A program made the translations under genes and the position numbers. Of a DNA stretch of 64,000 nt, positions 3,013 to 46,814 are shown piece by piece. Numbering within the stretch: the first letter of the stretch is position 1; each line of letters starts with the position of its first letter. The notes under the pieces are model-generated. The model was not told the origin of the DNA and searched no databases. It saw only the letters and a list, made by a program, of their open reading frames with translations. This DNA is from Antedon mediterranea (taxonomy: Eukaryota > Animalia > Echinodermata), in NCBI RefSeq assembly GCF_964355755.1, contig NC_092671.1, positions 13,144,001-13,208,000 of the forward strand, written 5' to 3'.

Positions 3013-3734
3013 CATCAAGTAACTAATGCTATTTTAACGTGTCCCAATCAAATGACGTCATGATCAATAAAAACAATAAAATCGTTGTATCGTGAAGATT
3101 GTAGGCCTAATTGTTTGATCATGAGGTCAATTTGATTGAATATTTCACCGAAGACAGAATATATTTTTATTTTTATAGTTCCAGTATGAAAACGTTTATC
3201 ATTTATCTATTTATCGTCGTTCATTCTCGTGCTAGTATAAACGGGCCTTTGTGCTTTCTTGTTTCATTTTGTTGTGCTCTAGCAAAGGCTAAACTTATGG
3301 AACGCAGTTTACGCAAGTTATTGGTGATGATGAAAATTGCATCGATGAAACGGCGTTTCGTATAAACTTATCAAAATCATCGTTCTATTCAAAAGAAATA
3401 TGTACGCTGCGCACGTGATATAAGTATCAAAATCTAAGCTACTAAAATGTAAATGTGTTTTTAAACTCACAAATGTGTTGTGTTTTCAGGTATTCCAGCA
3501 GGTAAGTGATCAAGTCCACGTCCACTGCAATTGACTTTGAACCAATTGGTGTCGGGCGGAGATTCACAGATACATAGCAAACTGTTACTATTATTATTGT
3601 GCAGACAATCCAAGTGTGCATAGCAACACACGACGAAGCTATAGAAAAGAATAAAAGTAAACGAAGGACGTAAAAACATTTTCTACTTATCGCGCCCAGG
3701 CTGCAGAAATATACTTAATCTGAATTTCCAGCTA

Positions 3735-3952
3735 CTAGAGGGTGAGCTCGCTTCGCTCGCTCCCCCTCTAGGAAGTGTAGACGATGGTTCTCGGAATGAT
3801 AATGTTCTCCTTATACATTTTCTGTCGGTTACCATTATTGAACTGCTCCCTTGTGTATAAAAGAGAGAAAATATTTGAAACCAGGTTGTTGCAAGGTGAA
3901 CTTATCTTAAACCCGGAAATTACTTTGACCGGGAAGAATTGAAATATATAGA
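3735..3952 (-). mobile_element. 218-bp mini-Helitron inserted just upstream of the copy A start codon
   Basis: Minus strand begins A^TCTATATATTTC (3952) and ends in the hairpin CTAGAGGGGGAGC-GAGCGAAGCGA-GCTCACCCTCTAG^T (3735). The flanks gcta|ttacgat rejoin to give the empty site gctattacgat in copy B at 17450-17460. Confidence 0.88.
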
Positions 3953-5729: not shown

Positions 5730-8700
5730 TTATATGCCATCACTTGACGAGGCGTTCAATAGAAAGATCTGTGAAGAACTCTCATGATTATACTCTGGAT
5801 CTGGAACAATCTGGTGTGTCCATCTTTCACAAATACTCTCTTTAACTTTCTTCAGTAAATCAGCTGCATAAGGTAAATAATATACAAAGTAAGTATTATT
5901 ACAATTATACACATAATGGCCTACATGTTGATTATAGGCTAAAGTAATTAATGAAAACTTACCAAAGACTAACACTAAGATGGACAAGTTAAGCATCAGT
6001 AGAATAAATGGTCTGATTTCATGAAGAAGAATAATTGAATCATCTGTCGTGTATAAAGAATCATCCATGTCAACAATTGTACCAATCGATAAGTTAACAA
6101 TTATGAAGACCAGTGTCAACAACTGAAATCTTTGATCCGATTTTTCCTTCATTGGCTCAAGATAAAGATGTAATGCAATAAGAATAACAGTTACAAACAA
6201 GGAATAAGACATGTTTGATGCTTCGTCATCTTTGAAGTTAGCGATAAGTGAAAGAATTGCTTTATTGTACATCTCAAATACTTCCCAGTACCAAAACCGT
6301 GAGTTGTATTGCTTACAAAAGAACTTTAATCCAACAATTTCTGGTCGTATACTATTAATATCTTCGTTATGTGAGGCATTACGTTTATATTTCCAATACA
6401 AAACGGCAACAACTGCAAGAGGAAAACCTATTACATATAGCAATGAAACAAACACGATGTTTTTGTTAGTATTGTACAGCGAACCATTATTATCTTCCAA
6501 ATTCATAATAGAATAGTCTGACGTAAGTATTTTCTTTGTATGATTGTGATTGTCATCTGATGTAACATTAAATGTACGAATCGACCAAGGACCTACGGCC
6601 ATGATATTTGAACAGGAATTTGCGTACGTTAAGTACATTAACATGATTGTAATTGATAAGCATTTGTCTTTTAAACGATGAGCTGTGTAATCACCACGAT
6701 ATCTATTGATAACGTGTAGCAGCAAGCAAACTGTTGACGCCAATATCAGAATAACGAAAGGTGTGGCTATACCAATATACAAAAGTGTATATGCATTCCA
6801 AGAACCAGACAAAATACACGCCGGACTGAGAAGATTAACATATCGAATAATGTCGAGATACTGTAAACTTTGTCCAACCGATTGAAAGTCTTCTGGCCAG
6901 TGAATTTCGTTTAGTTCAGATAGTATGCCAAGGATCTGATAGAAATTGATAGCTATCTTCATGTGAGTGAAAAAAGAACCCATGTGTGCGATACTTCTTT
7001 TATCTATCCGCCAAACTATGTATCCAATAACGGCGATTATTAAGATAATAACAGCAAATAGAATAATCATAATGAAACTCTTCTGACATTTATGACATTC
7101 GTTGAACAATTCGTAATAACCTGGTAAGCATGCGCCACATAACCATCCTGTATAACCACTGGAACAATTTGCGTCGATACCCCCTACGCAACTTTCTGAT
7201 CGTGGACACATAAACACAGCAGGTAATCTTCCATCGTAACTTGCATTTTTCAAAGCATCAGGATTACTTTCATTAAAGATGTTGCTAACTAAATGCGTAA
7301 TAAAATTATTGTACTTTTCTTTACTTTCTGGATCAAATCCCCAAAACCACCAGTAGCCCGTTAGCAATTGTTGAAAGTCACGTGCACAGTCGACACCTTC
7401 TGGACAAGGTTTGCATTCACCGAATCGATCAACACGATGGAAGTTATCAAGGCAATAACAAGCATTGAGATATGCTAATTGGTCAGTCTTAGTTCCACCT
7501 GGACATGTTTGACAATCATTAATCGTAGTAGCACCAGTCTTTTGCGAGAAACTTCCATTTGGACATGGTTTGCAGTTCTTAAGCCAGCTGCCTTCCTCAC
7601 TCATTCCCAACTCATCGTTGTAAAATCCTCCTGAAAATATACAATCGTACTATAATTAAACATTATTTTGTTCTTATCGTTTGAAATTAATTAATACATT
7701 TTCAGTATATCATCTCTTTTACATGTGGGTAAAATAAAAACTTTACAATACCAATCTGACAAATATTAAACAAGCCGTTGCTAATTTCATCATCATCATC
7801 ATCATCATCGTCGTCGTCGTCATCGGCATCGTCATCATAATCATGATCATATCCTCATCATCATCATTATTATTAATATTAATATTATTATTATAAATTC
7901 CTTTTTGATTTGACAAATCACCTGGTGGACAAGCATGGCATTCTGGTTTCACATTGTTTTGGCGTAACTGATAATGTCCCTGCTTACAAGGCTCACATAT
8001 ACCTTTAGTTTTGTTGCATACCATACCATAGTTTATATGAGTAAAATTAAAAAAGTCAAATATGATCTTAGTTTTATTTGTTAAACAATTACTGAAAATA
8101 AAAAACCAAAAACACTGAATTAATTAAAAATGAAAATATGTGTGTATAAACGTAATATCTTTCTCAAACCATTTTCAAATCTAGTTTAAACCAATGATAT
8201 CCTTATAGTATATGGCAGATACTTACATAAATTGCTTGGTTCCCACTAGGAATATTTGACCAATCACAAGTGATGGATTATTGTGGCTTGTGACTGGTCA
8301 ACTCGCTTGCCTTGCGTCGTCTACGTCATTGCGTTGCGTCTCTAGTGGGAACCAAGCTTTAAGTAGATATCAAATGATGTTTAGGATGGGAGATGGAAAA
8401 GTACACAAATCCCAAAAGATCAAATGTATTTACACTACTGTATTTCCAGACAAAGTTGATGGAATTTTCGTCAATTGTCCACAGTCCAAGTAACTAAAAA
8501 AAAAAATATTAGTATTGATGCATATACAAATTAATATTGCTGAAATTCAATGTAGGCTTTTAATTGTATTAATTTAAATACATTATTCTATTTATGCCAT
8601 AACTTACACCCCCCAAACAATAAAACATTTCACAGGACGCAATCGTCCATAGTTTATTTTGTCTAAATTACTTACACAATTGAATCATTTGACATGTTAG

Positions 8701-11700: not shown

Positions 11701-14700
11701 GATGTAGAGTGGATTGTGACCTAAACTGCTGATATTAAGCGTCAGCATTAGCGCGTACAACATTAGCGACTTTTCGTTTTAATGATGCACCGTGGAGGAG
11801 GTGTAAAAAGACAGGATGGTCATTATAAAACGTCAAAGTGTTGAACGTATAGTTATGAAAAACTTTAATTTTTTCAAATAATTCAATTTTGCTTTGCAAT
11901 ATTTTTTTATCCAAAAAAACAATAATAAATATTATACATTATACGTACATTCTGTTAATACGCTGTAGACCAGAAAACGTAAATGGTTCAATTTGCTCCA
12001 GAGTACTATTACTAATGTCACTGAAATATACAAAGGGTGATTCAACATATTTTATTATTAGTGCGTAACTAATGAAAGTACCATGTTTAAACGCAATGTT
12101 AGTTTAGTTTTGATACGACGATTGAAAAAACCCAAACAATCGATTTTTGTTTAATAATAGTATTGTTATTTAACTGAAAACTATAATTAAATTAAATTGC
12201 ATAGGCGTACCTATGCCTACATTTTTTTAAATTTCTTTATTATCATTATTATTATCCTCATTCTCATTATTATCTTTATAATTTTTATCATCATCTATAT
12301 AATCATTATCATCATCTTTGTAATCATCTTTGTAATCGTCTTTTTAATCACCTTTGTAATCATCTTTGTCATCATCTTTATAATCATCTTTGTAATCTTC
12401 TTTGTAATCATCTTTACAATCACCTTTGTAATCTTTTTTGTAATCATCTTTATAATCATTATCTTCATCTTTGTAATCGTCTTTGTAATTGTCTTTGTAA
12501 TCGTCTTTGTAATAATCTTTGTAATCGTCTTTTTAATCACCTTTGTAATCATCTTTGTAATCATCTTTATAATCACCTTTATACTCATTATCTTCATCTT
12601 TGCAATCGTCTTTTTAATCATTTTTGTAATCGTCTTTTTAATCACCTTTGTAATCATCTTTGTAATCATCTTTATAATCATCTTTATAATCATTATCTTC
12701 ATCTTTGTAATCGTCTTTGTAATCGTCTTTGCAATCGTCTTTGCAATCGTCTTTGTAATCGTCTTTGTAATTGTCTTTGTAATCGTCTCTGAAATCGTCT
12801 TTGCAGTCCTCTTTGTAATCGTCTTTGTTATCGTTATCATTATTATAATTCTTATTACCAGCAAAATTATAATATAAGCCTATTATTTATAAAAGCTTAC
12901 ATATTTCTAACAAAAGATCCTTGGAAAGTCGTCCTCGTTAGCTTCCTAATAGGATTACCATTCAATATTCTACAAAATGCGAAAAATAAAAAGGTATGAT
13001 TTGTAATTAATTGATTATTTAATTATTGACTGAATTGATGCTACAGTATAACCTTTCTCTCTCTCCTCATACTATGCTAAATATAATATAATATATAATA
13101 AAATAATGGCAGATGAACTGATGAAATAATTTACTTACATTGTGTCAAGTCGAGGTAAATTTGTAAATGATCCATCGACACACCTCAACCTATTATAACT
13201 CGCAGATCTTTAACATGAAAATATTCAATAAAGAATACATAATTATACATTAAGTGCATTATTATGCCAAAGTTAAATGTTTTAATTAATGTATAATTAC
13301 GATGGTATAATAAATAGTAGTTATGACCACAAATTATGTACCGCCGGTCTCCTCTGTCCAATGTGATTATGCTTTGAAAATACAGTTGGGAAACAACTAA
13401 TTCTCCATGGTATAGTTACTTAAAAAGCAACAGACATACACTTAAGTTGGGAAAAATGTAGGCCAGTGACAACATTTAGCTGATAACTTACATTGTGGTT
13501 ATTTTCTTTGGAAATTTTGGTAATTTAGTCAAGTTGTTGAAATCTAAAGATCTGAAAAAGAAAATATTCACCATTTTATCATTATCATTAAATCTATTAA
13601 TTAATTTAAATGACAGATCCGTAACAGACAAAATCAGGAAAGGGAAAACTTACAACATGGCGTTTAAAATAAGTACCTGATACTCAATACTCGCTCTTCA
13701 CCCGCTATACTGGAAAACCCTTTTATTATTTACACTAGTAAAGGAGTGTGAAACAGCAGTAGCGAAATTTAGATTTGAGTGAATGTGCACGACGTTCACG
13801 TCCACATGGATTACAGTCGACTGTTACTCGTCGACAAATATATGAACGGTTAGATGTGGATACTCACGTTGACGTTTCAGTGAACGTATAGTCAGTAAAA
13901 ACAAAGTAAGAACAAATTGCAACAGAATTGTTTGTTTTGTCTGGTTGATATGGTCCAAAAGTTTAACAAACATCGAATATCGGATAGTGGGTTAATTAGC
14001 ATACATTAAAAATGCCGCCATTTACCATTTTGAAGCCATGTATGTCCTGAACGGTTGGTTTTAGACGACCTAAGTGCATTGATGACATTAAACTTCCCAT
14101 TAAATATGTTTTAACTTAGTCATAGGTACGTCATATATTATTGTATAACTGCTTAAATGACATTATCCTACTGAAAAAAATCTATAAACTGCAGGAAAAC
14201 AAGTTTCTTAACATTTTCTTGTTTTTACCAAAATCGGACATCAAAAACAGGGTTAATTAGCATAAATTTAAAATGGCAGTTATTTGCTATGCCATTTGAA
14301 GCCCTGTATCTTCTTAAAGGTTGGTTTTAGACCCGAAAGTGAATTACGAGTAAATAATAATAATAAGATATTAAACTTTTTTTGAATATTGATAATTCAC
14401 AGTTAGTAATATAATTTAACTTAAATTTAACTACATTTACTTTTGCATTGATACGACGTCATACGTCCACCCGTACTCATGTCAGAGAGCGAACTGAATA
14501 AAACCCTAAATTTCAAATTTGGCAGTAGCATAAATTAACGTCATAGACTAGCAGTCGTCATAGTCTATATTATAGTATCTGTATTACATCAACGTTAGCT
14601 TTGTGTCCTACATTTGTCTCTATTATTGATAAAATGTACATTTCAGGCACACCATAACAATGTAATTCAAAACTTACATTTCGTTTAATTCGGAAAGTCG

Positions 14701-17409
14701 AAGTAACGCATCGCTGGCAATAGTTGTGAAGTTGTTATTGTTCAGATATCTTTTTAAAAAAGAGTAAGAAACAAATTGATACAATTATTTTAACTTTCTA
14801 CTTTAAATCAATAACATTTTACCACTCAATGGAGAGTTAAAAAAATTAACAAAACACAGCCACTGTCACACACAGCCACTGTGCAAATTGGGACTGGACC
14901 GTTTTAGAGGTGTTAACCACCTGTAGATCCTTCACTGAGTTAGTGAGAAGTCGAATAAATAAAATAAAAATAAATAAAAATAAAGGATGATATTATAGAA
15001 ATATAATATATAAGAGAAAATCAAAAGGTTCATATACCTTGAAAAATGACCCAAACAATTAATTTAAAATTATTATGTTTACTTTGGAGTCACAAAACTG
15101 CTTATGTGTTGTACAAAGCTTTTCCGGGTATGTATGTTCATATCTTTTCAACCCTGTCAAATTTAAATGAAAGTTACTCTACCAAACATGTCTTTGTAAG
15201 TAGTATCCGTATTTGGTGTGTTTGCTATTATTTTCTGCCGCACTAGTTCTGTTGTCCTAAACCTGTGTTCTCATTGTGTTTTAATAGAATATAATGGACA
15301 GGAATTAAAAACATGGGTAATATTATATTTATAAAAACTGTAGTCCTGTATTTAAAAAAACCAAGTATATATAATATAGCCGAAGACAGAATTCTTATTT
15401 TTATAGTTATTTTAATTGTTATTTATATAACATAACCCATATATTTTATAGTTATTTTGATTGTTATTTATATAACATAACCCATAGGCCTAAATCGAGT
15501 AAAATATTCAGCGTACAGACATTGCACGATAAACAACCTCGGTAAATAGATATACATAACCGTTTATACTATCTAACTAATAACTTTTTATCATGATTTT
15601 AATCATGACGTCAATTTGATTGGATATTTCACCGAAGACAGAATATATTGTTATTTTTATAGTTCCAGGATGAAAACTGTTATCATTTCTTTTGTTTTCT
15701 GTAGAAAAACTGTATCTATATATACATTTACGTAAGGGCAAAATTCTGTAAATCGCGCCTTACTTTTAGAATTTTTACTCGATGGTATGTAAAGTTGGTT
15801 CGTACTTTCGGTACTGATTTTAACCACCTGATGTAACCCTGTTTACTAATTAAATTAAGTTAGATAATTAGTTATTGACGATTAAAACGAATTTAGGTTC
15901 AACGATTTGCCCCAGATAGGGGTGTTTTCCGATCGTGGTATACACTGTCTAATGGATGTCTATCTTGAAAAATACCCGCCACAAAAATGCGAGGAGGCTT
16001 CGCATTTTCCTATCTCCTCCTACAATAATTGTTTTTAATAGCTGAAAACCGGTTGAACAGCTCGAGTACAGTATCATAATGTTGAAGACAGGCCGATTTT
16101 CTTTAAAAAATACTATTTTGATAGATTTAATATACGTTTATACAAATGTATTGATTTGCGATGAATGGAACATTCCAATCTCTGTGTCGTTCCACAAGTG
16201 TCTATTCCCTCAGGCGTCGTAAAGGAAAGTACTGTATACTCATAACAGAAATTCGATCCTTTTTTTTTTCAATCTGTGCTGCAGAGGTTGGATATAATTT
16301 TTTTTAATGGATAATGAGCTAGCGTTTTCAGTCGCCGTAATTTAATATTTATTACCGATTAAATCGAATTTATGATTTGCCCCGAATAGAGGTGGTTTTC
16401 ACAAATTGTTTAACATTATATATAAACATACGTCGTAGTGTATCGTTACATGTACTGTACTATTTCAATCGACTACGACGGTGATAGTTTCAACAAAGTA
16501 TTACATCGCAATGTTTTACTGTGTTTAGTGGTATATTATTTGTAAAACATGTTAATTAATATTTCGTTACAAAATAAAGACTATATTTAAAAATTGTTCC
16601 TCTTTGCACCCATCCTCTTTCCCATCTCTCAACCATAATGTTACATACAAAACACAAATTAAGTTTGTTTAAATTTGACTTAAACAATTGGTCTCATTTT
16701 GTGACAACATTCTCTTTCGGAAGTAATTCCCAGTGTGCTAATTTTAGTTGAGTACATAAATCACAGTGTCTATTTAATCGTTCCTGTAAACGACATATAT
16801 TATTGCCCTGCATTATTGTACATTTGAAATCGCCAGTTTTTTAACGCTGAAATTACTGTGTATTCGAGAACCATCTGTGGGCACGACCTAGATGGTACGC
16901 GAGCGAAGCGAGCGTACCATCTAGTATTTATAATTTATCTATTTATCGTCGTTTATTGTCATGATAGTATAAACGGGCCTTTGTGCTTTCTTGTTTCATT
17001 TCGTTGTGCCAGCAAAGGGCAAACGTAAGGAAAACAGTTTACGCAAGTTATTGGTGATGATGAAAATTGCATCGATAAAACGGCGTTCCATACAAACTTA
17101 TAAAAATCATCCTTCTATTCAAAAGAAATATGTACGCCGAGCATGTGATATAAGTATCAAAATCTAAGCTATTAAAATGTAAATTTGTATTTAAACTCAC
17201 AAATGTGTTGTGTTTTCAGGTATTCTAGCAGGTAAATGAACAAGCCCACGTCCATTGCAATTGACTTTGAACCAATTAGTGTCGGGCGGAGATTCACAGA
17301 TACACAGCAAACTGTCATCATTATTATTGTGCAGACAACCCGAGTTTGCATGGCAACACACGACGAAGCTATAGAAAAGAATAAAAGTAAACGAAGAACG
17401 TAAAAACAT
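5730..17409 (-). CDS. LRR-containing, Cys-rich, multi-pass membrane receptor (copy B), 19 exons, about 1098 aa
   Basis: Hand-spliced GT-AG exons keep one open frame: 17201-17409, 14678-14749, 13492-13551, 13139-13207, 12901-12969, 11949-12020, 11481-11555, 11142-11210, 10968-11039, 10800-10871, 10569-10637, 10108-10254, 9535-9603, 9019-9087, 8676-8747, 8434-8493, 7922-8091, 5963-7630, 5730-5863 (total 3297 nt). Contains a signal peptide, LRRNT (CICE..VNC.GRGL.HLP..IP.NTTHL), LxLxxNxI repeats, CxxCPxG repeats and about 9 hydrophobic helices. Confidence 0.9.
5963..7630 (-). CDS. Large exon 18 of copy B: Cys-rich (ephrin-receptor-like/GCC-type) repeats plus multi-TM domain
   Basis: Core of ORF 5730-7610. 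Acceptor tttcag at 7631, donor G|gtaagt at 5962. Motifs CKPCPNGSF, CQTCPGGT, CSSGYTGWLCGACLPGYY, MKIAINFYQIL..I.WP, YWEVFEMYNK, YLEPMK. Confidence 0.93.
7786..7895. repeat. (ATC)n/(GTC)n/(ATT)n microsatellite in intron 17
   Basis: Directly visible trinucleotide runs. Confidence 0.85.
8234..8357. mobile_element. Foldback MITE, family 1
   Basis: Perfect 16-bp TIR gcttggttcccactag...ctagtgggaaccaagc. Shared with copy A, so it predates the gene duplication. Confidence 0.8.
9696..9969. mobile_element. MITE with CAG(T/A)GGCGTAGGCTGG termini (hAT-like)
   Basis: cagaggcgtaggctgg at 9696 and ccagcctacgccaccg ending 9969; internal direct repeat ggctgagctaa...agagctgct. No clear TSD. Confidence 0.65.
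12300..12835. repeat. 12-bp minisatellite (atcatctttgta / atcgtctttgta)n in intron 5 of copy B
   Basis: About 40 degenerate units between LRR exons 12901-12969 and 11949-12020; accounts for the spurious ORFs 12197-12877 and 12295-12864. Confidence 0.95.
13965..14340. repeat. Two copies of a repeat fragment (ggttaattagcata..aaaatggc..gaagcc.tgtat..ggttggttttagac)
   Basis: Copies at ~13965-14070 and ~14225-14335; a single full copy in paralog A at ~1790-1895. Confidence 0.55.
15715..16924 (+). mobile_element. Complete 1210-bp non-autonomous Helitron-like element in intron 1 of copy B
   Basis: A^TCTATATATAC 5' end; 3' hairpin CTAGATGGTACGC-GAGCGAAGCGA-GCGTACCATCTAG^T at 16888-16924; absent from the paralogous intron of copy A (~3200); second copy at 1-410. 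No RepHel ORF. Confidence 0.9.
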
Positions 17410-18217
17410 TTTCTACGTTTAGTACTGATAGCGGCCAGGCTGAATATTAGCTATTACGATTATTGTCCGAGTCAAATATAATAGTTAAAATTACATGTTA
17501 CTTCCTTATACATTATTTTCCAATGAATGAATGAATCTTTTCAGTTTTAATTCTTGAGATCACTCACAATTGAAAGGCAAACACCTTTAGTTAAATATTC
17601 TATTATTAGGCCTATAGAAATTTTATTAAGAATTGGTTTCCTATTCTATGTTTATAAGGGAAAAGTGAGATTCTTCCCTTTTCGGTGTGACGTATGTGAC
17701 TTTAATTTTACGCTATAAAATTGTCTTAAAATGAAATTGTCTGTTATTATTCTCAGTATATGTGATCACCATAAGCGTATATTCGATCGGGCTATTTTGA
17801 GCAGATTTATTAGAGATCTAGCTGCTCCAAGTCCTTTTATTTTATTTTTATTAAACCTTATTTAAAGAGGGTAACCAAACAGTATGCTGACACTCAAGGG
17901 ACCTTCATAACAACCTTGCTGTTTTTTTTTTCTCTTTTGTGGCGTTAACCACTATTTTATTCATTTCATTCTCAAATGATCAATACAATGATTTTACACT
18001 TCATCCAAATATATATTCTCTGTTCTGTTATTTTCTTGTCCTTTCTTTTATCTTTTGTACGATTTGATCGAAACAATTCGGTCATATATATATATATATA
18101 TATTGGGGCGACTTTTTCTCATTCTCACAGATTTCCTCATCTTTATCGTTTCAAATTAATTAATTAAATTTCAGTATATCACCGGGCGGTTTAGAATTAA
18201 TGTTCTTTGCCTGATTT

Positions 18218-20826: not shown

Positions 20827-22684
20827 GTAAACGTATTGCCGTGAACGAACGAGGGGCAATCTTGTAACACTAGGTCTAGTAACGGAGAACTTTGTTGGGT
20901 CCTGAAGGTATCCCTAAAATATCATGCTGTATTTTAATTTCAAGAATAATGACTGTGTTGATTAGAGGCATAATTACGTACTATCCAACTATTGTAGAAT
21001 ACCGTCTAATAAAACATACTCGTTGTTCCGGTAAGGGCGGAATGTTTGGGCTTCAGAGGATACCCACCTGTAAGTTTGTATTATATTGGCGAGAAAATAT
21101 ACTGTGGTACCGTTCACTAAAACGTGTGACTAGGCTATAGTCTAATTTCAACTTAATATTTGGCAGTGATAGGTTCAATACGTGTAAATAAAAATCAGGT
21201 ACAGGTACTAAACTGTGACGTCATCAGTAACATCTGTGCTTTATAGATTTTAAACAAAGATCGTTTCAAAATGATTATTGATTACATCACATGTCAATGT
21301 TTTCATGGAGAATCCAGTATTGGTATTTCATATTCAGTTAATTAAACTAAAGAAATAAACATATGCATGGAATATATTTCGTAACAGCCGATAATATTTA
21401 CATTTTGAAGAATACAATGGAAGGCTAAAGAACACTGGAATAAACAGGTAAGGCATCCGATTATGTTGGAAATATGCAATAGGCCTAGGTAGGTACTAGT
21501 AACCGCATTTACAACATGAATAAGTGATCTAATGGAGGGCCAGTTACCGCCAATCAACAAAAATGTAAATTAATGTATTAATTAGTATCCCCTGCCTGCT
21601 GAGTGTTCAATAGTATTCTCACCTCGTCGAAAATTACGTTGTTTTGTATTGTCTCTGTGCTGCTTGATGTTTTGTAATTGTAAACCATTATTAACTTGTT
21701 GTATCTGTATATATATATTGTAACTACTGTATGACCTTATTTTGTAAACATTTTGTATGGGTCGGAACTCTTGTTACGAGAGTGTTCCTCCGTTTTAAAG
21801 GAGAGTAACCAATAAATATTATTATTATTTATTATCTCTCCACCCCTACAAAGACTATTTGATTAATTATAAAATAGTATAGACACATATAACTTATAAG
21901 AAAATACAATGCATTTTGTTATAGGCTTTACCTATATACGGATAAAACTATGTAGGCTTAACTTCATTAGAAGTACAACCATTGCTGGTAGTTTTTCATG
22001 CCTAATTTTATCTCTTTTTATTAACCACTTAATATAGAATACCCACTTGGTTGCTATTTTTGTACATCTTACCAATAAGTGTGATAATATGATTACGCTA
22101 TAGGTATTCATTAAAATGATCATACTAAGTAGGCAACGTAGGTATTAACATACATTATCAAAAGTAAAACTGAATTGACAGCTCCCTGTTGAAATTATTG
22201 AAGATAAAACTAGACTAAACGGAACAACGCGTCGGATATCTTGTCAAATCTCTATATATTATGTAATGAAGACAGAACGAAACTGCCTAATTAATATGGT
22301 TATTTTACTATGTTATTGTACAATGATAATAATTAATCACGAGGGGAATTCATTTCCAGTTCATTTACACATCTCAAAATTGTGTAATATTAAGTCTTGT
22401 ACAATTGGTCTAACTTCTATAGTAGGTTAGTGAGTCAATTTTTAATGTATTTCATACAAGTACAAAAAATTAAAATTTGTTTAACTATAATCTTTTATGA
22501 CTGTATTTTTTCAATCTTTTAACTCACGCTTTCTTTTTTTTAAATTTTTTTATTGCAGTTTTATACCATTTTAACTCTATTTAGCGCCATATGTTGACGA
22601 TGATTTTTACAAATAAAATGAATGAATAAATGTTTTTGGTCTTTCAATAACAGCAATGTTCATAGTAACCATACGTGAGGGGAA

Positions 22685-23944
22685 ATGACGTATTCTGAGT
22701 GTGTTAGTGAAGATGAATACTACATTTGTCCATCTGAATTCGGGGACTCGTCTAAAACATCCTGCTGTATCGATAGCTACGGCGTTGGACAGTGCTGTGT
22801 CCCAGAGACGATAGGGGCCACTAATGATCAGCCTTGGGCCGGCTACCAGACAGATACGTAAGTTATAGCACAATATCATTGTATGGTGTGTGATATTTAT
22901 ACTAATTATGAATAAATATGTTTATAAATGTAATAAAATAATAATAATAATAAATATTGAATAGAAAATTTAATTTTGTAAACTGATTATGTTAATATTA
23001 TTAATTTCAATGTCTAATTAATTCTATATCGGCATCGGCAATAAATTCAACAATAAAATATTAATGTTCTCTGTTGTATGGCGGTATCTCTTTTAACTTA
23101 AAGCAAACGTGATTATATTAATATTCTGCTTAAATCTATAAATTGATCAAGTGACTAATTGTAATTTTCATTTTTTTATCTTGTTTATTAACACATCCAT
23201 TATTAAATCAGTAGGCCTATTCAATGACTGAAATAAATAGAATATGCCTGCAACGTATATGCATATTGAATACTAAAGATTATAACTGAGATTAATATGA
23301 AATATACAGTAGTTCATAACGTTGAGATGATGATAATAAAGTTGATGGAAATAATAATTATCAGGTTTCTGAAATATCATCGTATATTTATTTTGTAGAG
23401 TAATAATATTTAAATAGATTCATAAATATTTAAATGTTTACCAAATTACCACATTTTCTTCTTATTTTACAGTCCTATGATATATTATATGGATTATTTA
23501 TTGATATTCGGAGCCAGTGCTGTATTGTTAGTGATAATGGGACTACTGTGCTGTGAATACTCGGATTTTACTTTAGAACAAGACAACTCGTATCTAATTA
23601 AACAACACTCAGTTGCACCTAACACTAGATTTTCCGAACCTCACGACTACAATGGTAACAATTTCCGGGTCCTTCGTGAGTATAATCGGCACATCGACAA
23701 TGTACCTTCGGCACCGCCGAGTTATTACGAAGAATTTGACAACGGAACCTTCGGTCGCAATTATGAAAGACACCACTATCCCGAACAATTGACTGAAAAC
23801 ACCAACACTTTTAAAAAGTCGAATCAGCATTGCCATACAGACACGAAAATGCAATATCAATTAGAATCAACGTCGTGCCACAACTGGTACCTTCCACCCT
23901 CCAACGCTCCTCGACGATCACCTTCCTTTAATGATTGGTCTTGA
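22685..23944 (+). CDS. Shisa/WBP1/VOPP1-like single-pass membrane protein, about 214 aa, 2 coding exons
   Basis: Exon 22685-22857 (MTYSECVSEDEYYICPSEFGDSSKTSCCIDSYGVGQCCVPE..., donor gtaagt) splices in frame to the acceptor tttacag at 23473. Six-Cys C..C..CC..CC ectodomain, TM, juxtamembrane CC, and a PPSY motif. Confidence 0.82.
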
Positions 23945-30999: not shown

Positions 31000-33900
31000 T
31001 CATTTTCGCTCTGATCCAACATCTGCCAATCCAAGTTTAAAAACCTACAAATAAGAAAATTATGGTGTTAGGTAATAACAAAATTCAAAAATTATTTTTA
31101 AAAAAACGTATACTATGAACAAAAGGAATTAAACTTACAAACTGAATAAACTGAAATTATAATGTAAACAGATTTCTTTCATAAATGAACAAATAACACT
31201 TGTTTGTTGAACAGACAATAATATAAAGAATTAATTACAATGATTGATTGGGACCAGTTTGAATATGAAATATATCAACAGATCAGACATAATTTCCAAA
31301 AACACAGAATCAGTATCAGTTCTAGTATTAGTAACATAGATATGAAGCAACTATCGGTGCTAAGCCGTAATTAGAATTGATCGATTATAGTTATACGGAC
31401 ATAATATGAATAGTTTAATGATCAATATTGTCATGTTTCAGGAGAAACAATTTACCTTTAAGCTCTGTCTACACTATCACACTTTATGTGAAAAGAAAAA
31501 TATGATGTGCCTATAATGGACATGATGATGTCATATCACCACCATAATATTGAGAATATCACTACCATATTTTGAGCAAATCACACTAGTTTGATAGTGT
31601 AGACAAAGATAAAAAGAAATCGGCAGCACGCTATTTGTTGACCGGAAAAGATTTAGTTGAGAATTTAGAAGGTTTGATTGTTTAGAGGGCCGGGATTAAG
31701 TTGACTTTTTCGGAGTCAGATTGATTATTCAGGAGTCCAATATTTTTGGCTCGATTGACTATGCATGGGTTATGTTTATTATTTAGGGGTAAAGGTTAAT
31801 AGTTACAGTATCATGCAGCTGATTTCGCAGGCCCTTTAAAATACATGGTAGTAGGTATTATTAAGAAAGCTTCGAAACCAGATTGAGACATTATATTGGT
31901 CGGATAATATCGGCGACGAAGCATAATTATGATTAATAACAATTAATAGTCATATTAAATTGATCCAGTCTGTAAGATTTAACCGCATCACTAAAATGCT
32001 TTGTCAATTTTCATAAATTAAGTCACCTAAATTTGATATTTAAAGTAGTATCATCAAATTGGAAGACAAGATATTTTAATGGTTTTCGCCTCACTCTTGG
32101 CTATTGTGTTTTACTGGTAATCAAATATTAAGATTGATTGATTCCTACTATAGACACAACACAAGGACGTAACGCAACGTAAGTCATTTGACCAATCACA
32201 ATAAATGGATTATTCGAACTAGCGCTTGTGATTGGTCAACTCGCTTGTATTGCGTCTACGTCCTTGCGCTGCGTACCTAGTGGGAACCAAGCTTTATGTT
32301 GATAATTCTGTAGTAGATATTTAGCCTAAATGATGGTGGTCTGGGAATTAAGATCATTATAACATTTCTTTAATAGTGAAGGCCTTTCACAGGCATCATA
32401 ATCGCTTGTGTAAACTTATTTATTAAACATTGTGCACATACATTATCCTGTGTGGTGTTTTTTTTTTAAACTGTTATGGCATACCATGTTTGTCGTCGAC
32501 GATGTCTTGTTATATAAAAATATTTTAGCAACATCCAATAGTAAAATAAAACAATTTTCCCATAGTACTATTATTATATTAGTAGAATAAATAATAAATG
32601 CTTTAAATATTAATTAACCTCTGTTTTTTCTAACCACAATTGATAAATAAAATACAGCAATTTTGTGGTAAAGTATAGCAAGTGTAAAGAGTCAGTCATT
32701 ACAGTGTTAATTATATAATATTTATTATAATATTATATATTAACTTATTGTTAATCTTTATTTATTTTTTATATTAAAATTATATTAATAATTGCAGTGG
32801 TAACGTAGTCTTAAACTGTAGATTTACAGCGGATGCTACTAACCGATATGAACATCTTGATTTACAATTCATCACTAAACTCAATTATTGGATGATATGA
32901 ATCTCTTATTATAGAAACCAATCCCATCAATCGTATTATCGTACACTTTTTGAGAGTTATGTTGTTTCCAGTTGATTTACTTTGCAATCAACATTTTTTT
33001 TTATTACATCCGTTGTGCTCTGTAATGTGAATGGGTATACTAAGCCAAACGTTTCTTTACGTTCGTCGGAGTTAGCAAAAGTGACCCACTTAAAAGAATT
33101 GTATTCAAGAAGAAAAACATAACATTCTAGACGGCGTGTGTGTGCGTGATAACTTTACAGTATACTAAATAAGTGCAAACTTAAAAGGGCATGCGTTTAT
33201 GCCTGTTTTCCATAAGGCAAGTGCGCGTGCGTACACAGCGTACATATTTTTATCTACTTTGTGTGTGACGTGAAAAAAAATGCTCGGGAATGTTCGATTT
33301 ACGCGAATATATATTTGCTAATGGAAAACAAGGTGTACGTGTGATACTTGGTGAGTAAACCAGAACCTACGTCATAAAAAAAAATCATTATTTTGTCTTT
33401 AGCTTCGAATGCCATCATTTAGTAATTATAATCTAGATGCAGTATCATAACTCATAGGGACAACGAAGTACAATCGTCCAGATACCAGTACTGTATCAAA
33501 TCTTATATGAAATACTAGTGTCAGTATGCGCTCGAATTAATAACACACCATATAAGGACGATAATAAGATTATTGAAATAAAAGTGGGATGATCCAAAAT
33601 AAAGAAAAAAAAAATAATAAGATTATATTATTATGCCTACAATTTTCAAATAAAAAATTATATATTCTTATAACATCAATTGAATTAAATGTTGTTCCAT
33701 TTCATATTCATAGTATATAATAATTGTCAGTTAAATAAATGTATTGCTTAGATTATGTACGGACAGTGTAACAATGTACCCGTTGACGATGTAACTGTTC
33801 CGTGAAGTTTTCTAGCTAAAACATATAGTTGTATATACCTTCACATACGAGCAGTATTTTTATGTGGCACCTTATGTTAACCATCGTAGTAATATATCAA

Positions 33901-34104: not shown

Positions 34105-35659
34105 CTGCAGAGTAAGTTTTACTTTCATCATCAACAACCAAATCCGAAATAAATAACGTATTTAAGAACATAAAAAGCATTCATAGTTACTTAGAATTCA
34201 ATAAATCAAATTTAATTAGCAATTAAGAAGCGTCTTGAAGAGCGCAAACACTTCGTAACTAGGCGTGACATTTTCAGTGATGTAATTCCGAAAGTCCAAG
34301 TGTAAATAATGTTCGAAAATTAGAAATTCATGACACGAATAGAAAATTAAGATTGGTTAAGATAAATGATACTCTGATGAAAAACGTGATCATTTTTAGA
34401 TGTCCGTAAAACTTAGTAGAAATATAATTATAAGTTAGGAAAGAAACACGATTTTACATTAACAGTATTCTATGAAAAAAAAATCATTCTTACGTAAACG
34501 ATTTAAAACAAGTTGAATTGACTGTTTAAATCAAAATGTAAATTTCACACATTCTCATATTCTAGGTATACTATTAAATTTATTGAAAATATAATTAAGA
34601 TGAATTTTGCTGTGATGTGCATGCTAAATTGAAGTAAATTAATACCATTAGCCTTTTACTCATATTCTGCTAATATTTATGCTAAAATTGCTGTTTAAAC
34701 GATGGATTACATACAATTGATATAGAAGTTTTTTTTTGCTGTTACTCTTGTAGGAACTTTGTCCTAAGGCTTTTGAATTATAAAATGGTTTAAATATATT
34801 GAAATCTGACTGAAGAAACAAATGCAGTTCATAGTTATGAAAACCAATGTGGTTGACCATATGGTGGATAAACTTAACATTCACCCGTGCAGTAGCCCAT
34901 GTCATAAAGTAAAGACATGACCATGGTTTGTGTGTAACTCGCCTCCTACTCTCAGCTCGGTGGATCTTCCTCTGGTCTTTGATTAACCTATGCTACCAAT
35001 ACTGATACCAAAGTACTTTAACCCGGTTAAACATTACTAGAAACGTTACGGTCTCGAAAGTATTCAAAAAATGCATTTAACCAAAGTAGGACCGCAACAT
35101 TTCCATTTTCATCGATACGTAAACAAGATTAATTCTCACCTTTCCACAAGAATTAAACAGTCACAATAATGCACAAAATGATAAATGAACTTTCCTAGAG
35201 GTACAACCAGATTTACATTGACGTAGTAGTAGACATTGCTCAAGAGATCTAATAAACAATCGGGGACTGTTTAACGATGACAATAATAGCTGATATAATA
35301 TATAATAATAGCTAAGTACGGTACCTACAGTATCTTATTTGTACTATAACTTACCAAATCGTCTACACAAATTAATTCAGGTTGTCACACCTTTTAAAGA
35401 AGTGTTTTTTTTCCAAATTAAACGGTTGATATCTGATTTCAGTTTATTTGTTCATTAAAAACGTTTACGTTAATTAAAAAAATGTGCAATCATTATCATT
35501 CTCAGTAAAGTAACACTCTACCGCTATAAACTGATATAGGTTTTGGAGTTGTGTAAAAGTGCGGAAACGATTTTCTGAAACAGATACAAGAACAAAACCA
35601 ATACCAAAAGATTTAGGTAGAGAAGAAATAGGCATATGAAAAACGTAATTTTTGCCTAC

Positions 35660-38600
35660 CAGTGTTATGATGTCTTGCCAGTTAGTTGAAAGTAGTTGAA
35701 ATGCTTCTTCCATTCGACACATGCCGTCGTCTGGTTTTATACCAGGTACAAAATCTTCAAGTACCTCCTAAAAAAAATTTGATTAACAGTTTAACAATTT
35801 TTTTGAATTATAACTAATATAATGATGATATGTATCAAAGTATAAAGACCCATTTACACTAGGACGATAACGATCGACGATAAAAAAATAAACATACCTT
35901 TTTTTTACATAAAAGAAATTTTTTTTTAAAGAAATTTGTTTTCAATAAAACTATAGGATAACCAGTTAGGTTGTTAACAATATGAACTTACTGGGAGTGT
36001 TTCTTGGTAACCGCCGTCATATACCCTTTTTCCGACTGCAAAAGAGAAAGAAAATACAATCAATCATTAGTACGATAAAACAGTAACAACATAATATCAG
36101 ATCAACTTAAACCTTGAAATAAAAACAGACCAGAGCTGTCTATACTTGATAATAATTTAATTTTGAAAATAATTCCTCCCCAAAATTCCAAATATTATAT
36201 AGCCTATACTATATAGTTAAGTTCGGTTCCTAAAATAATTATAAAACACTATCACTCAAAAAGAAATATTACTTGTTAAAATATAGTTTTTCAAAATTGA
36301 ATACATGATATATGTAAAATACGTAGTATACCATTTAAATTGTTGTAGAGATTGCTAAGTAACGGCAGTAATACGTATAGTGAGTTAATAATCAGAAGTG
36401 TTTATGGAAATATACGAGATAAGCGATAAATTGTATAGATATTAAAGCAGACACTAAACATACTGAATGGAAGTTCATTACAATTTGAAATTGAAACTTA
36501 AAGAATGACTGTACATTGCAGGTGATCTTTTATTAACCTGTCCTATTTCAATACGTAATTGCTCAGTAATTAATCTTGTTGCTAAGTTGATAGACTTAAA
36601 TTATTTTGTAGATAGTATTTATAGTTTATAGTTAGTTATAATTTATATATATCCAATTGATATTTTAGTAAATAGTTTTTGTTTGTGAAGAAAATTGTCG
36701 ACTACTTATCCTTATTTTATGTTTTAATCAGCCATGGCTGGAGTACTCCGAGGTACTGTACTAAATAACTAACGTCGCACCAAATTAGGTACGGTACAGT
36801 AGTAGAAATGGGAGTGGACAGATGTAAGAATGTCTAGTGATGTAAAACACTTCGGGAATGAGATAAATAATTTTAATAAGGTCATTTAAGGTCTAGCTCT
36901 TGGCAAATAGTTTTCCTGTGAACAAAATATTAAACAAATATATGTATTAGTAAGAGTAAAAATAAGTAAAATGAGTCAGTGAGTGAAACCAAGTGACTAA
37001 ATTACATTAATATGAATATTTAATAACATTTCGTACTGCTTACGTAATTGGCACGCATAACCAATGCACTTTTAGAAAATTATTAATAAGATCACGAAAC
37101 GTTGTTTTTAATTGTTTGGTGTACAAAATTCAACTGTGAAACATGAAACCAAACATGATTAACAGTTTATATTTATGAAATAATTAAATTAAAGCACACA
37201 TTTAGCATAAAACATTAAATATCGATTGTTTTTTTTTGTTACAATAATTATAAAATACTATTTAGATTTCTTTTCCAATTTATTTCTCTGCTATATGCTA
37301 TGTATAAATGATTTTGACGTAAATTATGAACCAAAGAACTGCAAAATGTATAATAGATAACGAAAAAGTCAACTGTGTCTAATTTCTATCAAACTTGAAC
37401 ATAAAACTTTATCAGGGAAAAATACGATGGCGTTCGTGTAATAAAAGTTTCGGACAATCGGATCGCCCACGCTGATGATAGACAAGTAGGCCTAACATCA
37501 ATACAATAAACGCAATATTAAATAAAAATGATATTGATTAAGTACGTGTTTGGCAATGAGATGAGAATTCAATCAATCCTTTACACATTGCTAATTATTG
37601 CAGGGCGTGTGGTTGTGATGGTAGCCGTGTCTAATAAATGATAACATATTGATAATTTAACCAATTAACATGATATCGTATTGTCCAAAACATTGTAATA
37701 ACACTTTATTTCAATATTCAAACATATTAGATGTACTTTATTTACTATCTTTGTTTGAAGAATTGATCAGGTTAAAGATTTATTCTTGGCAACCGTAACA
37801 AATGGAATGATATTCTCTATTATTCATGTTGGTTTGCATAAAATAAAGTTTTAAATTAATATAAAGTATAATAGAAATATTATTGCTTTTTTATGTCCTC
37901 GTTTCTGGAACAACTTAGATATAAATATTAAAAATGTATATTCCATTAAATATACATATATTACACATAAAATGTTTAATGTGTATTATTTCGTAAACTT
38001 TTTTTGCATAGGCCTACAGCTTATCAGCCTTGTACTGTGTAGCTTATTGTTGATATCCTTTTTCATCGTTTAATTTATTTTAATCTGTATTTTATCATTC
38101 CCTTTGATTATTAAATAAACAAAATGATAAACGAAATGAAAGGGAAAAGAACATTTATTAATATGTTAATGTTCTATTATTTCGAAGTATTAAATAGGGG
38201 CCTAAAATATTGTCCCTAAGTATAGGCTAATCAGCCAATAAAAATAGAACAAAAGATGGAATAATGACGTATATATGATGTTAAATTATATTAAATTATG
38301 GAGGAACCACGATTAGACTAATTGTAGTTGAAATAATCCAATTTTAGGTGGAGAAGACTATTACACGCTTCCATGGGAGAACAAAGTGCAGTAGGCCTAC
38401 TAAGACGTGAATTGCACGTCATACGAGATATAGGCGTATTTTATATCGAGTCTTCCAGAGTGTGGCCTCATATTAGACCGTGACACTGTGCTTCTCACTT
38501 TTTAATGAAGGTAATTGCCATTCTGATGACATTACAAGGTCATTAAAATTAAAAGCATAATTCAATCCAATCTAATAGGACCCAATTAAAACACCACTGT

Positions 38601-39146
38601 AAATATCACACTATATTTAAATCTGTCATTTGTTATTTTCCTAAATAGGCCTACGCGTTATACAATATACAATAAGTTTTTACCAATATTTGCTAAATAA
38701 TGTTTTAAATACATTTTGTGTGTCCTAAATAGACAAAAATATTATATTCCTTAGTTCCAACGGACCAATTTCAAATCACAAAATATGCATACAATGCACA
38801 AACTCCATCATCCAAGTCTAGTTATGAGCATGATGATTTATGTTAAAGTCTTAAAGGCACTTTTACTTATGGAGTGCAAACGGTAAACGTCCGTATTCTA
38901 TTTTCGTTACCAGGCCAACTTTCAAAAAGGGTAAAGAAGCTTTCTCCGTTAAATTCATAACTAAAACGATTTATGAAACGGCTAATAATCGAACCAATAT
39001 TGGAAACAAAGTTATAATTATATATTACGGTACTTACATATTGGCTTCCTTGCGGCTGACGTCGTTGATATGAAACATACTGCGAGAACCAATGAAAGAC
39101 AAAGCCAACTAAAGGCTTGTCTATTTACATTTAATGAAATCGACAT
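35660..39146 (-). CDS. Putative neuropeptide precursor 1 (ARKPIF-amide directly after the signal peptide); 3' end unresolved
   Basis: Exons 39038-39146, 35992-36035, 35660-35767 with canonical splice sites give MSISLNVNRQAFSWLCLSLVLAVCFISTTSA-ARKPIF-GKR-VYDGGYQETLPEVLEDFVPGIKPDDGMCRMEEAFQLLSTNWQDIITL. Confidence 0.8.
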
Positions 39147-39616
39147 AATACTCTTTCGAAATTTATTAAATTGTTTTAGAGATACCTGTCTATAAAAATG
39201 GTATATAAAAGCTAGAGAAACCTGTTGATAGTGATAATATTATAGATATGGTAGTTAAGCAAGCTTCGAGTTGAATTTATAGACAGACGGAAACGGAACT
39301 GAATATATATTGACATTTAACACTGAAGATGCTATTGGTTATAATTTGGTAACTATTGGCGCGTTCTGGTCCAGTGACTTTTATGTAATCTGCGTCATGC
39401 ACCACTTTACGCAAAATTCTCACTTGTTCACTGTTGCCGTGAAACGGAGGTATAGGTTGAGTCAATAACAACAATGCAAACTAGTTTTCTTCGTATCTTA
39501 TAGAAACTGAATTGAAATATAACTTAAACAAATAGTATATTCATTGATGGTCATGATGACATTGTAATTCACGTATCGTATATTTTAAAGTCAAGATTTT
39601 TGTGAAATAAAATATG

Positions 39617-44960: not shown

Positions 44961-45156
44961 CTTCAACGCCTGGTGCAATGTTATTTCGTAGCGAACGCAT
45001 GGCTGGTAAAGGATAATGTTTACTACAAACCATTCTTCCATTTCCATCCATCTCGCACCTCTGTCTTTTGTTAAGCTTACTAGCTGTAATACATTCTCCT
45101 TGATATGATAGCAATACTACATAAACGATTAGTCCTATAATACGGTTGGTATTCAT
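44961..45156 (-). CDS. Putative secreted peptide precursor 2, first coding exon (KR-QRCEMDGNGRMVCSKHYPLPAM..)
   Basis: Hydrophobic signal peptide, KR site, Gln-initiated C-x9-C peptide, RSLR furin-like site, donor GAAG|gtaaga at 44960; TATTTAAAAA at 45217-45226. Next exon not identified. Confidence 0.68.
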
Positions 45157-45592: not shown

Positions 45593-46760
45593 TCAAGGGA
45601 ATATGCATAATGTTCCACCGTCGTGGTCGATAGTTCTACAATCTAAAACAGCAAAAGCTAAAACACAAAAAATTCATCCCTTTGTGGTCCAAAGAGGGCG
45701 GTATTTACTTACTGTAAATTATGGATGGAATTTTACCTCTACAATTATTTAACGATGTGAGTATTAGGTTGATTGAAAAGTTCATTATTAGAATAATTTA
45801 GTTGTATTTTCGACATTGAAAAACAACACACAAACAACAACTTGTTCAAAATTTGTTTGTCGACTTTTTTAGGTACAAGAACAGTATTTACAGTTCGTTC
45901 CTATATTTAACTTAATTCTACGAATGATATACCGGTATAACGTCATTTGAAGGGGAAAAAAGAAAACAAAAAGGCTGTTCTTGTCAATTCCATTTTATGT
46001 ACCTAGTTGTACTCTTCTAAAATTTTAGGTTCCAGACGCCGATTCCACTTAAATTGCTATAAATATTTTGGCCCACATGGCATTTCATACGTACAATACT
46101 TTATCTTAGTTTTACGAAAATCGAAACGCTGACTGTTGGGCAACAACATAAGACAGAAAATAACTATACTTCGGGCAAGTATACAGTAGATGTATAGAGA
46201 TAATTATCTACTAAACTAACTACTAAAAATAATGAGTGTTATATAATCCTTCACCACATTTAAGGTTAAACTAAGACGTAACTACATTTACTTTATCAAA
46301 AACACATCGGGTAAACCAGAAATGTCTTCATTTTTATATAAACTAATAATGTAATCAATAATTGTAACATGATAAACTTACGTGTATTGGAGTTTGATAA
46401 GTACTCCATTCCAATGGGTGGGGTAAACGGTGTTGGATTTAGATTCAATTGATGATGACGGTGATAGTAGCCAGAGTCTTGAAAACGATCATCTTGATTC
46501 TCCAAATATATTCGGTTATCAACTGAGTAGGGACGCTGTGGTGGTAGACGGTACAATCCACTCAGCGAGTTACTGACAGCATCATGTCTTTTGCCAACAC
46601 GAATTGGAAACTTTGGTACACTGCGTTTTTTAATGTATTGTTCTGCATTATGCTGCCCTAATATAAAGCATCTTGATGGTGCTAGTAACACGTATAAAAC
46701 TAAGCACAATAAGTATATACATCTTTTGGACACGTTAGCGGTCATTTTGATGTTTTTCAT
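45593..46760 (-). CDS. Putative neuropeptide precursor 3, luqin-like (SVPKFPIRV-amide; C-terminal C-x10-C), 142 aa, 2 exons
   Basis: Exon 46382-46760 (signal peptide, KKR-SVPKFPIRV-GKR, donor C|gtaagt) joins exon 45593-45642 (acceptor ttttgctgttttag) to end SNTHCRTIDHDGGTLCIFP*. Confidence 0.82.
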
Positions 46761-46806: not shown

Positions 46807-46814
46807 CTTTTATA
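46807..46814 (-). promoter_or_regulatory. TATA box (TATAAAAG) of precursor 3
   Basis: Canonical TATA about 47 bp upstream of the ATG at 46760. Confidence 0.55.

Follow-up and report, generated by a model that had tools for sequence, protein, structure and literature searches.

A crinoid gene with three alternative signal-peptide exons and one shared amidation exon: a likely neuropeptide cassette in Antedon mediterranea

What kind of gene encodes the predicted peptide ARKPIF-amide in the crinoid Antedon mediterranea, and does it belong to a known neuropeptide family? The gene lies in a 64,000-nucleotide (nt) stretch of this genome (the window), on the minus strand, to which all gene coordinates below refer. 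A first-pass annotation had marked positions 35660..39146 as apparently encoding a compressed SIFamide-type peptide. RefSeq lists the gene as 'uncharacterized' only. The feature is a genuine neuropeptide-type precursor gene of four coding exons. It reaches beyond the marked interval, with a coding exon at 31044-31000 (exon 4) and two alternative starts of the coding sequence, in the exons 45156-44961 and 46745-46382, all of which had been overlooked. Three alternative front exons, each with its own signal peptide, are combined with three shared exons, and the gene is likely a neuropeptide cassette in which each front contributes a different predicted peptide.

The exon anatomy agrees exactly with the RefSeq models. 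Front exon C (39038..39146, 109 nt) joined to the shared exons 2, 3 and 4 gives a translation identical in every letter to XP_071941395.1 (isoform X3, 101 amino acids (aa); P0004). With the same shared exons, front exon B (44961..45156, 196 nt) yields exactly XP_071941394.1 (isoform X2, 130 aa; P0005), and front exon A (46382..46745, 364 nt) exactly XP_071941393.1 (isoform X1, 186 aa; P0006). The last 64 residues are common to the three isoforms, and the 5' exons differ. Shared exon 2 (35992..36035, 44 nt) begins with the TC that completes the last peptide codon and continues with G-K-R, 11 residues and a phase-0 donor; shared exon 3 (35660..35767, 108 nt, phase 0-0) encodes 36 residues, among them a single Cys, with two short helices predicted; the coding part of shared exon 4 (31000..31044), which is required for the identity with XP_071941395.1, encodes 14 residues ending in R-K, followed by the stop.

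Splicing of front C was observed in one RNA-like contig, and the A and B forms come from the RefSeq models. Reads were compared over positions 34800-39400 in three runs, X5, X1 and X4, the latter two representing one sample. In run X5 (kind 'RNA?', depth 285), a single contig of 1,249 letters joins 39038 to 36035 and 35991 to 35766, both joints showing the canonical CT..AC ends. This contig covers 8 of the 30 bins, starts upstream of the front C ATG (run X5 gives no cover at 39150-39400) and leaves the compared stretch at 35658, continuing for 983 letters past exon 3. Neither exon joint is present in runs X1 and X4, though all 30 bins, introns included, are covered there. Two acceptors considered as the start of exon 4, at 35574 and 33366, were ruled out, because the X5 contig exits at 35658 and RefSeq uses 31044. 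At 35843-35920, intron 2 carries a high-copy element of ~75 bp with many loose ends, whose contig depths sum to thousands in each of the three runs. It may be one end of a small transposon.

Front C opens with the ATG at 39146 and encodes a signal peptide of 31 or 32 residues, whose leader has a clean basic-hydrophobic-small layout and ends in TTSA. It is followed by A-R-K-P-I and the first base of a Phe codon, which is interrupted by a phase-1 GTAAGT donor. The acceptor at 36035, the best one in the intron (16 of the 18 upstream bases are pyrimidines), completes this codon and is followed by G-K-R. The short peptide directly behind the signal peptide (TTSA, ARKPIF-GKR), as originally described, is borne out by the sequence, the X5 contig and XP_071941395.1, and the same holds for the phase-1 intron inside the Phe codon, with its donor after 39038 and its acceptor before 36035. 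Under the (-3,-1) rule for signal cleavage, both TSA/A and SAA/R are acceptable, and the predicted peptide is therefore ARKPIF-amide or RKPIF-amide. Further trimming to PIF-amide, which had been proposed as an alternative, is unlikely because the internal R-K precedes a Pro, and a Pro after a basic pair usually blocks convertases.

The other two fronts are built differently. Front A encodes a signal peptide, KKR, the predicted SVPKFPIRV-amide, GKR and a spacer before its phase-1 GTAAGT donor; a further in-frame ATG lies at 46760. Front B encodes a signal peptide, KR, a predicted Cys-pair peptide with an NGRMVC core and an E before the codon that is split by its phase-1 GTAAGA donor. When the minus strand was scanned between 36036 and 64000, three exons combining a signal peptide with a phase-1 GTAAG donor were found, namely A, B and C, as against four in 100 dinucleotide shuffles (mean 0.04), the hydrophobicity cut-off having been chosen once the values were known. 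Among themselves, the fronts gave no blastn match below E 0.2 and protein z-scores of -0.2 to 0.5, except for C against A (z 5.0), which we attribute to the hydrophobic leaders. Judged from their sequences, the fronts are not recent duplicates. TATA-like boxes, at 39275..39281 (135 nt upstream of the front C ATG) and at 46814 before front A, and acceptors just upstream of each front ATG are both present; the boxes are a weak hint of separate promoters, since a GC content of 30% makes such words frequent. A strong donor-like site (CAG/GTAGGT) lies 1.5 kb upstream of front A, at position 48250 of the window, minus strand, and might mark the end of a common non-coding first exon.

How one exon can serve three peptides is explained by its reading frame. 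The acceptor at 36035 is the sole strong one in the window that is followed by Gly and a basic pair, and because the window has this single G-K-R exon, fronts A and B are without a processing exon of their own. As shared exon 2 begins with TC, only F, L, I or V can precede G-K-R; F, V and L occur among the three Antedon isoforms, and V in the related protein of the crinoid Anneissia japonica. With the end of the last codon and G-K-R both coming from the shared exon, each front leads to a different predicted amidated peptide followed by the common tail. This tail has one Cys (position 68 of isoform X3), the other two Cys of the protein being located within the signal peptide. Of the Cys-containing helical tail with GMCRMEEAF that the first-pass annotation had described, the motif and one Cys are found in the exon at 35767-35660, while the helices (70-77 and 81-90) stem from a low-confidence AlphaFold model (mean predicted local distance difference test score, pLDDT, 49.6). 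By eye, the M-C-x-M-E motif of the tail (35700-35724, minus strand) recurs in the tail of a crinoid precursor labelled kisspeptin-type 2 (supplementary file 2 of PMC9793003; statements on the papers cited by PMC number refer to the accessible parts of each). The peptide of that precursor ends in F-x-G-M-I/L-amide, which by eye is near the vertebrate tachykinin motif FxGLM.

Prohormones typically mature in several steps: the signal peptide is cleaved off, a convertase cuts after K-R, a carboxypeptidase trims the ends and the product is amidated. The gene could yield its peptides in the following manner: The signal peptide of each front would direct the precursor into the secretory pathway, where a convertase would cut after K-R, carboxypeptidase E would trim the basic residues and PAM would amidate the product. 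Isoform X3 would thereby give rise to (A)RKPIF-amide, isoform X1 to an FPIRV-amide, and isoform X2 to a disulfide-looped peptide and a short V-amide. The common tail of 61 residues would be co-released from every isoform and may help in sorting or folding, or be a product itself. The choice of front, either by separate promoters or by mutually exclusive exons behind a common non-coding exon, would determine which peptide is released by a given neuron; rhodopsin-type G-protein-coupled receptors are the most likely targets of these peptides.

Are the fronts conserved together with the tail? A profile of isoforms X2 and X3 retrieved four proteins from 729 candidates, the three Antedon isoforms and XP_033100625.1 of Anneissia japonica (217 aa); with residues 1-40 from the open reading frame of exon 3 as the query, two proteins were retrieved from two candidates, both RefSeq entries of Antedon mediterranea. 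The Anneissia tail is identical to that of Antedon at 50 of 64 positions (28 of 36 in the exon 3 part, 12 of 14 in the exon 4 part), which makes the tail the most conserved part of the protein. The N-terminal part of the Anneissia model matches front A at 37 of 102 positions (shuffle z 14.6), and the mature part of front B is matched at 20 of 45 positions (z 13.7), with E-V-G-K-R at the B join, as in front B itself. Two front motifs are conserved, [FL]-P-x-R-V (FPIRV in Antedon; LPVRV and LPTRV in Anneissia) and the Cys pair around NGRMVC. Because Anneissia has parts resembling A and B joined to the same tail, fronts A and B belong with this tail in two species.

Several observations weigh against the cassette. 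The single Anneissia model chains an A-like part to an inner B-like part, so that B is an internal exon there, and the last amidated segment of front B is little conserved save for E-V. Front C has no match in the N-terminal part of the Anneissia protein (z -0.2), ARKPIF is absent from this model, the only other crinoid model found, and an isoform resembling front C was found by the protein profile searches in Antedon mediterranea only. The front C joint comes from one contig in one run whose RNA status is guessed, and it may not be independent of the annotation; the A and B joints are taken from the RefSeq models, the read comparison covering 34800-39400 only. All peptides discussed here are predictions from the sequence alone.

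In a different reading, the locus would mainly encode one long multi-peptide precursor (A, inner B and tail), or the conserved tail would be the real product; the signal peptides of B and C would then represent 5' variants that are recent or minor, and ARKPIF-amide, known in one species, would be an unconserved by-product. The Anneissia model and the conservation of the tail far above any front speak for it. So do possible inner phase-1 acceptors within the signal-peptide code of front B (AAG, 45098..45100, minus strand) and of front C (39079). T-rich acceptor tracts would translate as hydrophobic residues. The acceptor at 45098 lies at the end of the front B signal-peptide code, where the Anneissia model changes from its A-like to its B-like part, and front A joined here stays in frame, giving 232 aa; front B may thus also serve as an internal exon. 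On the other side, the C form is a path assembled through exon 2 in run X5, at depth 285 and starting upstream of the C ATG, and the front C leader is laid out as a clean signal peptide. Furthermore, the motifs encoded by A and B are kept between Antedon and Anneissia, which argues that the fronts carry selected peptides. We therefore consider the long precursor unlikely and favor the cassette of alternative fronts.

Searches at larger scale place the gene among neuropeptide precursors and within crinoids. A HMMER scan of 1.84 billion representatives at E<=0.001, a harsh bar for short precursors, gave six matches, four from crinoids and two repeat artefacts (P0008, P0009), and none other outside crinoids. 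Pfam reported no family for isoform X3, isoform X1, P0007 or front exon A and one chance match for isoform X2 (E 0.29); the PDB sequences gave a single chance match (E 0.43), and a metagenome scan 216 pattern matches, 0 of which were confirmed. The nearest Atlas clusters by features were all neuropeptide precursors or without a name, and the Atlas structure rows were all below the naming bar.

Is ARKPIF-amide then a SIFamide-type peptide, as was initially suggested? The resemblance is real as far as the layout is concerned: isoform X3 has an F-amide peptide immediately behind its signal peptide and shares RKP and IF-amide with SIFamide. Aligned to the SIFamide 12-mer, ARKPIF has five identities with one gap; among 400,000 random hexamers, 27 have at least as many, and among 400,000 that end in F, 495. 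Orthology with SIFamide is not supported. Arthropod SIFamide precursors have a Cys pair in the tail, whereas the crinoid tail has one Cys in both species; the peptide ends in P-I-F-amide and neither in GSIF-amide nor in the lophotrochozoan LxF-amide; and the profile search, at its harsh bar of E<=0.001, retrieved no related precursor outside crinoids. Arthropod SIFamide has 12 residues with a GSIF end, and the Rhodnius precursor has 74 aa and is encoded by three exons with two introns (PMC7047498), as compared to six residues, 101 aa, three coding introns and alternative fronts in the crinoid gene. By the motifs examined, the gene appears to encode a precursor that is SIFamide-type in layout but probably not a member of the family.

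A broader version of this idea treats the locus as a crinoid member of the SIFamide/GnIH/NPFF system, with front C providing the SIFamide-like layout and front A GnIH-like PxR-x-amides. The one universal feature of this family is a terminal Phe-amide, its chordate motif being PxRFamide (PMC4062910); LPXRFamide is a further motif for comparison (PMC8461181). FPIRV of Antedon and the two tandem copies LPTRV and LPVRV of Anneissia are in the same register as these motifs, and an unnamed arthropod Atlas cluster of 74 aa (0.90, 163 features; rank 16, or rank 1 with six families skipped) has the length of the Rhodnius SIFamide precursor. In contrast to the chordate peptides, front A ends in Val as P-x-R-V, shares the Cys tail and shows no detectable precursor homology; front C is without Arg at -2. 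The GnRH clusters of the Atlas outrank the unnamed one. GnIH/NPFF/SIFamide receptors are, according to the accessible part of PMC4062910, absent from the sea urchin and present in a hemichordate, and a SIFamide-type receptor is, in that of PMC5627052, not identified in echinoderms. With dozens of families and orphan precursors available for comparison, a match at the 1e-4 to 1e-3 level may also arise by chance. Membership in this system is thus highly doubtful. Its boldest form, that crinoids kept a SIFamide/GnIH/NPFF system thought lost in echinoderms and express a SIFamide-like F-amide (C) and GnIH-like PxRV-amides (A) from one locus by 5' exon choice, is very improbable; if true, the locus would supply the link that is missing between the SIFamides of protostomes and the GnIH/NPFF peptides of chordates.

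Two echinoderm families that had been named as alternatives are at odds with the gene structure. Kisspeptin genes (KPP1) have a phase-1 intron between signal and peptide exons and encode an RXLPF-amide; here, the intron lies in the last codon of the peptide, and the motif is absent. SALMFamide genes of the L- and F-type have a phase-0 intron after the signal exon and several LxF- or FxF-amides; here, the intron is in phase 1, and a single PxF-amide is encoded. Both crinoid precursors, KPP1 and SALMFamide, are other listed proteins in PMC9793003.

The gene might instead be a strongly diverged member of a family unlisted for crinoids (bombesin-type, GnRH/corazonin-type or the brittle-star np27) that gained its extra fronts later. 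In echinoderm bombesin genes, three introns interrupt the coding sequence, in phases 1, 0 and 0 and with the first one within the peptide, and the precursor has 102 aa, the crinoid member being unidentified in the accessible part of PMC12002301; isoform X3, with phases 1, 0, 0, its first intron likewise in the peptide, and 101 aa, matches this pattern. The bombesin motifs PRXN and RIFGPXX-amide are absent from all three fronts, though, and the tail of the starfish bombesin-type precursor ArBNP (PMC12002301) is without Cys and without visible likeness to the crinoid tail. GnRH precursors make up 15 of the 30 Atlas matches listed (0.92, 171-181 features), yet no front resembles the starfish GnRH or corazonin peptides as given in the accessible part of PMC4923880 (whose main text and supplement legend conflict on which gene type has two introns), Pfam gave no GnRH/corazonin match, and the shared exon is unable to provide a terminal Gly or Tyr. 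The brittle-star Ovnp27, a SIFamide-like IF-amide look-alike judged possibly convergent (PMC5627052), shows a partial likeness by eye: its precursor reads IF-G-K-R or FF-G-K-R a short way past the signal peptide, includes an IPVRY core that resembles the [FL]PxRV of front A, and has N-[LW]-x-D in a helical-looking tail, as in the crinoid tail. It differs by its 12-13-residue peptide with the np27 motif IPVRYQTGxxF-amide and its 85-aa precursor without a tail Cys, with no alternative fronts reported in the accessible text, and neither Pfam nor the profiles yielded a match. A diverged member of one of these families is therefore improbable, and we retain the cassette gene as the preferred reading. 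By eye, the tail L-V-R-A-W of the crinoid precursor PCNP2 (PMC9793003) resembles the L-[LM]-K-A-W of brittle-star np27 (PMC5627052), which makes PCNP2 a competing crinoid np27 candidate.

The remainder of the window contains other features. Tandem copies of a gene for a leucine-rich-repeat, Cys-rich membrane protein are found at 5730-7649 (minus strand), with pieces at ~400-630, 3440-3900, 7740-8120 and 15580-17450; relatives occur in Anneissia (56%), Antedon (52%) and Acanthaster (33%). A small gene at 22679-23944 (plus strand) combines an exon rich in Cys with a hydrophobic stretch and a tail rich in Pro and Tyr, and presumably resembles Shisa-like proteins, for which Pfam gave no support. 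A low-complexity tandem repeat at 12191-12999 opens long open reading frames in several frames, and the word TAGGCCTA occurs 29 times in the 64 kb window.

Neither the gene nor its architecture appears to have been described. The precursor list of the crinoid catalogue (PMC9793003), in its accessible part, is without such a protein, and six motifs of the gene are absent from its seven supplements; a literature search found nothing relevant on RKPIF, PIRV or a front-swapping architecture, most subscription journals being outside its coverage. The gene supplies candidate ligands for echinoderm receptors without an identified ligand, several of which are listed in PMC5627052, and if crinoids have an NPFF/SIFamide-type receptor, the question of its ambulacrarian ligand becomes directly testable. 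The arrangement also suggests how new neuropeptides could arise in a simple way: an upstream exon that has a hydrophobic leader and ends in a phase-1 donor would gain an F-, L-, I- or V-amide and a ready tail.

Alternative splicing is known from a number of neuropeptide genes: (i) calcitonin/CGRP (PMC4772807); (ii) locust myosuppressin and termite CNMamide (PMC4237046); (iii) sea-cucumber calcitonin and PDF (PMC6586643). In these genes and in the crinoid gene alike, exon choice leads to different precursors from one gene. In the known cases, as far as described in the accessible parts of these papers, the 5' coding exon is shared and the downstream exons vary, and the resulting peptides are related or identical. 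In the crinoid gene, by contrast, it is the signal-peptide exons that vary and the predicted peptides are unrelated, while the amidation and cleavage signal is the part that all forms share.

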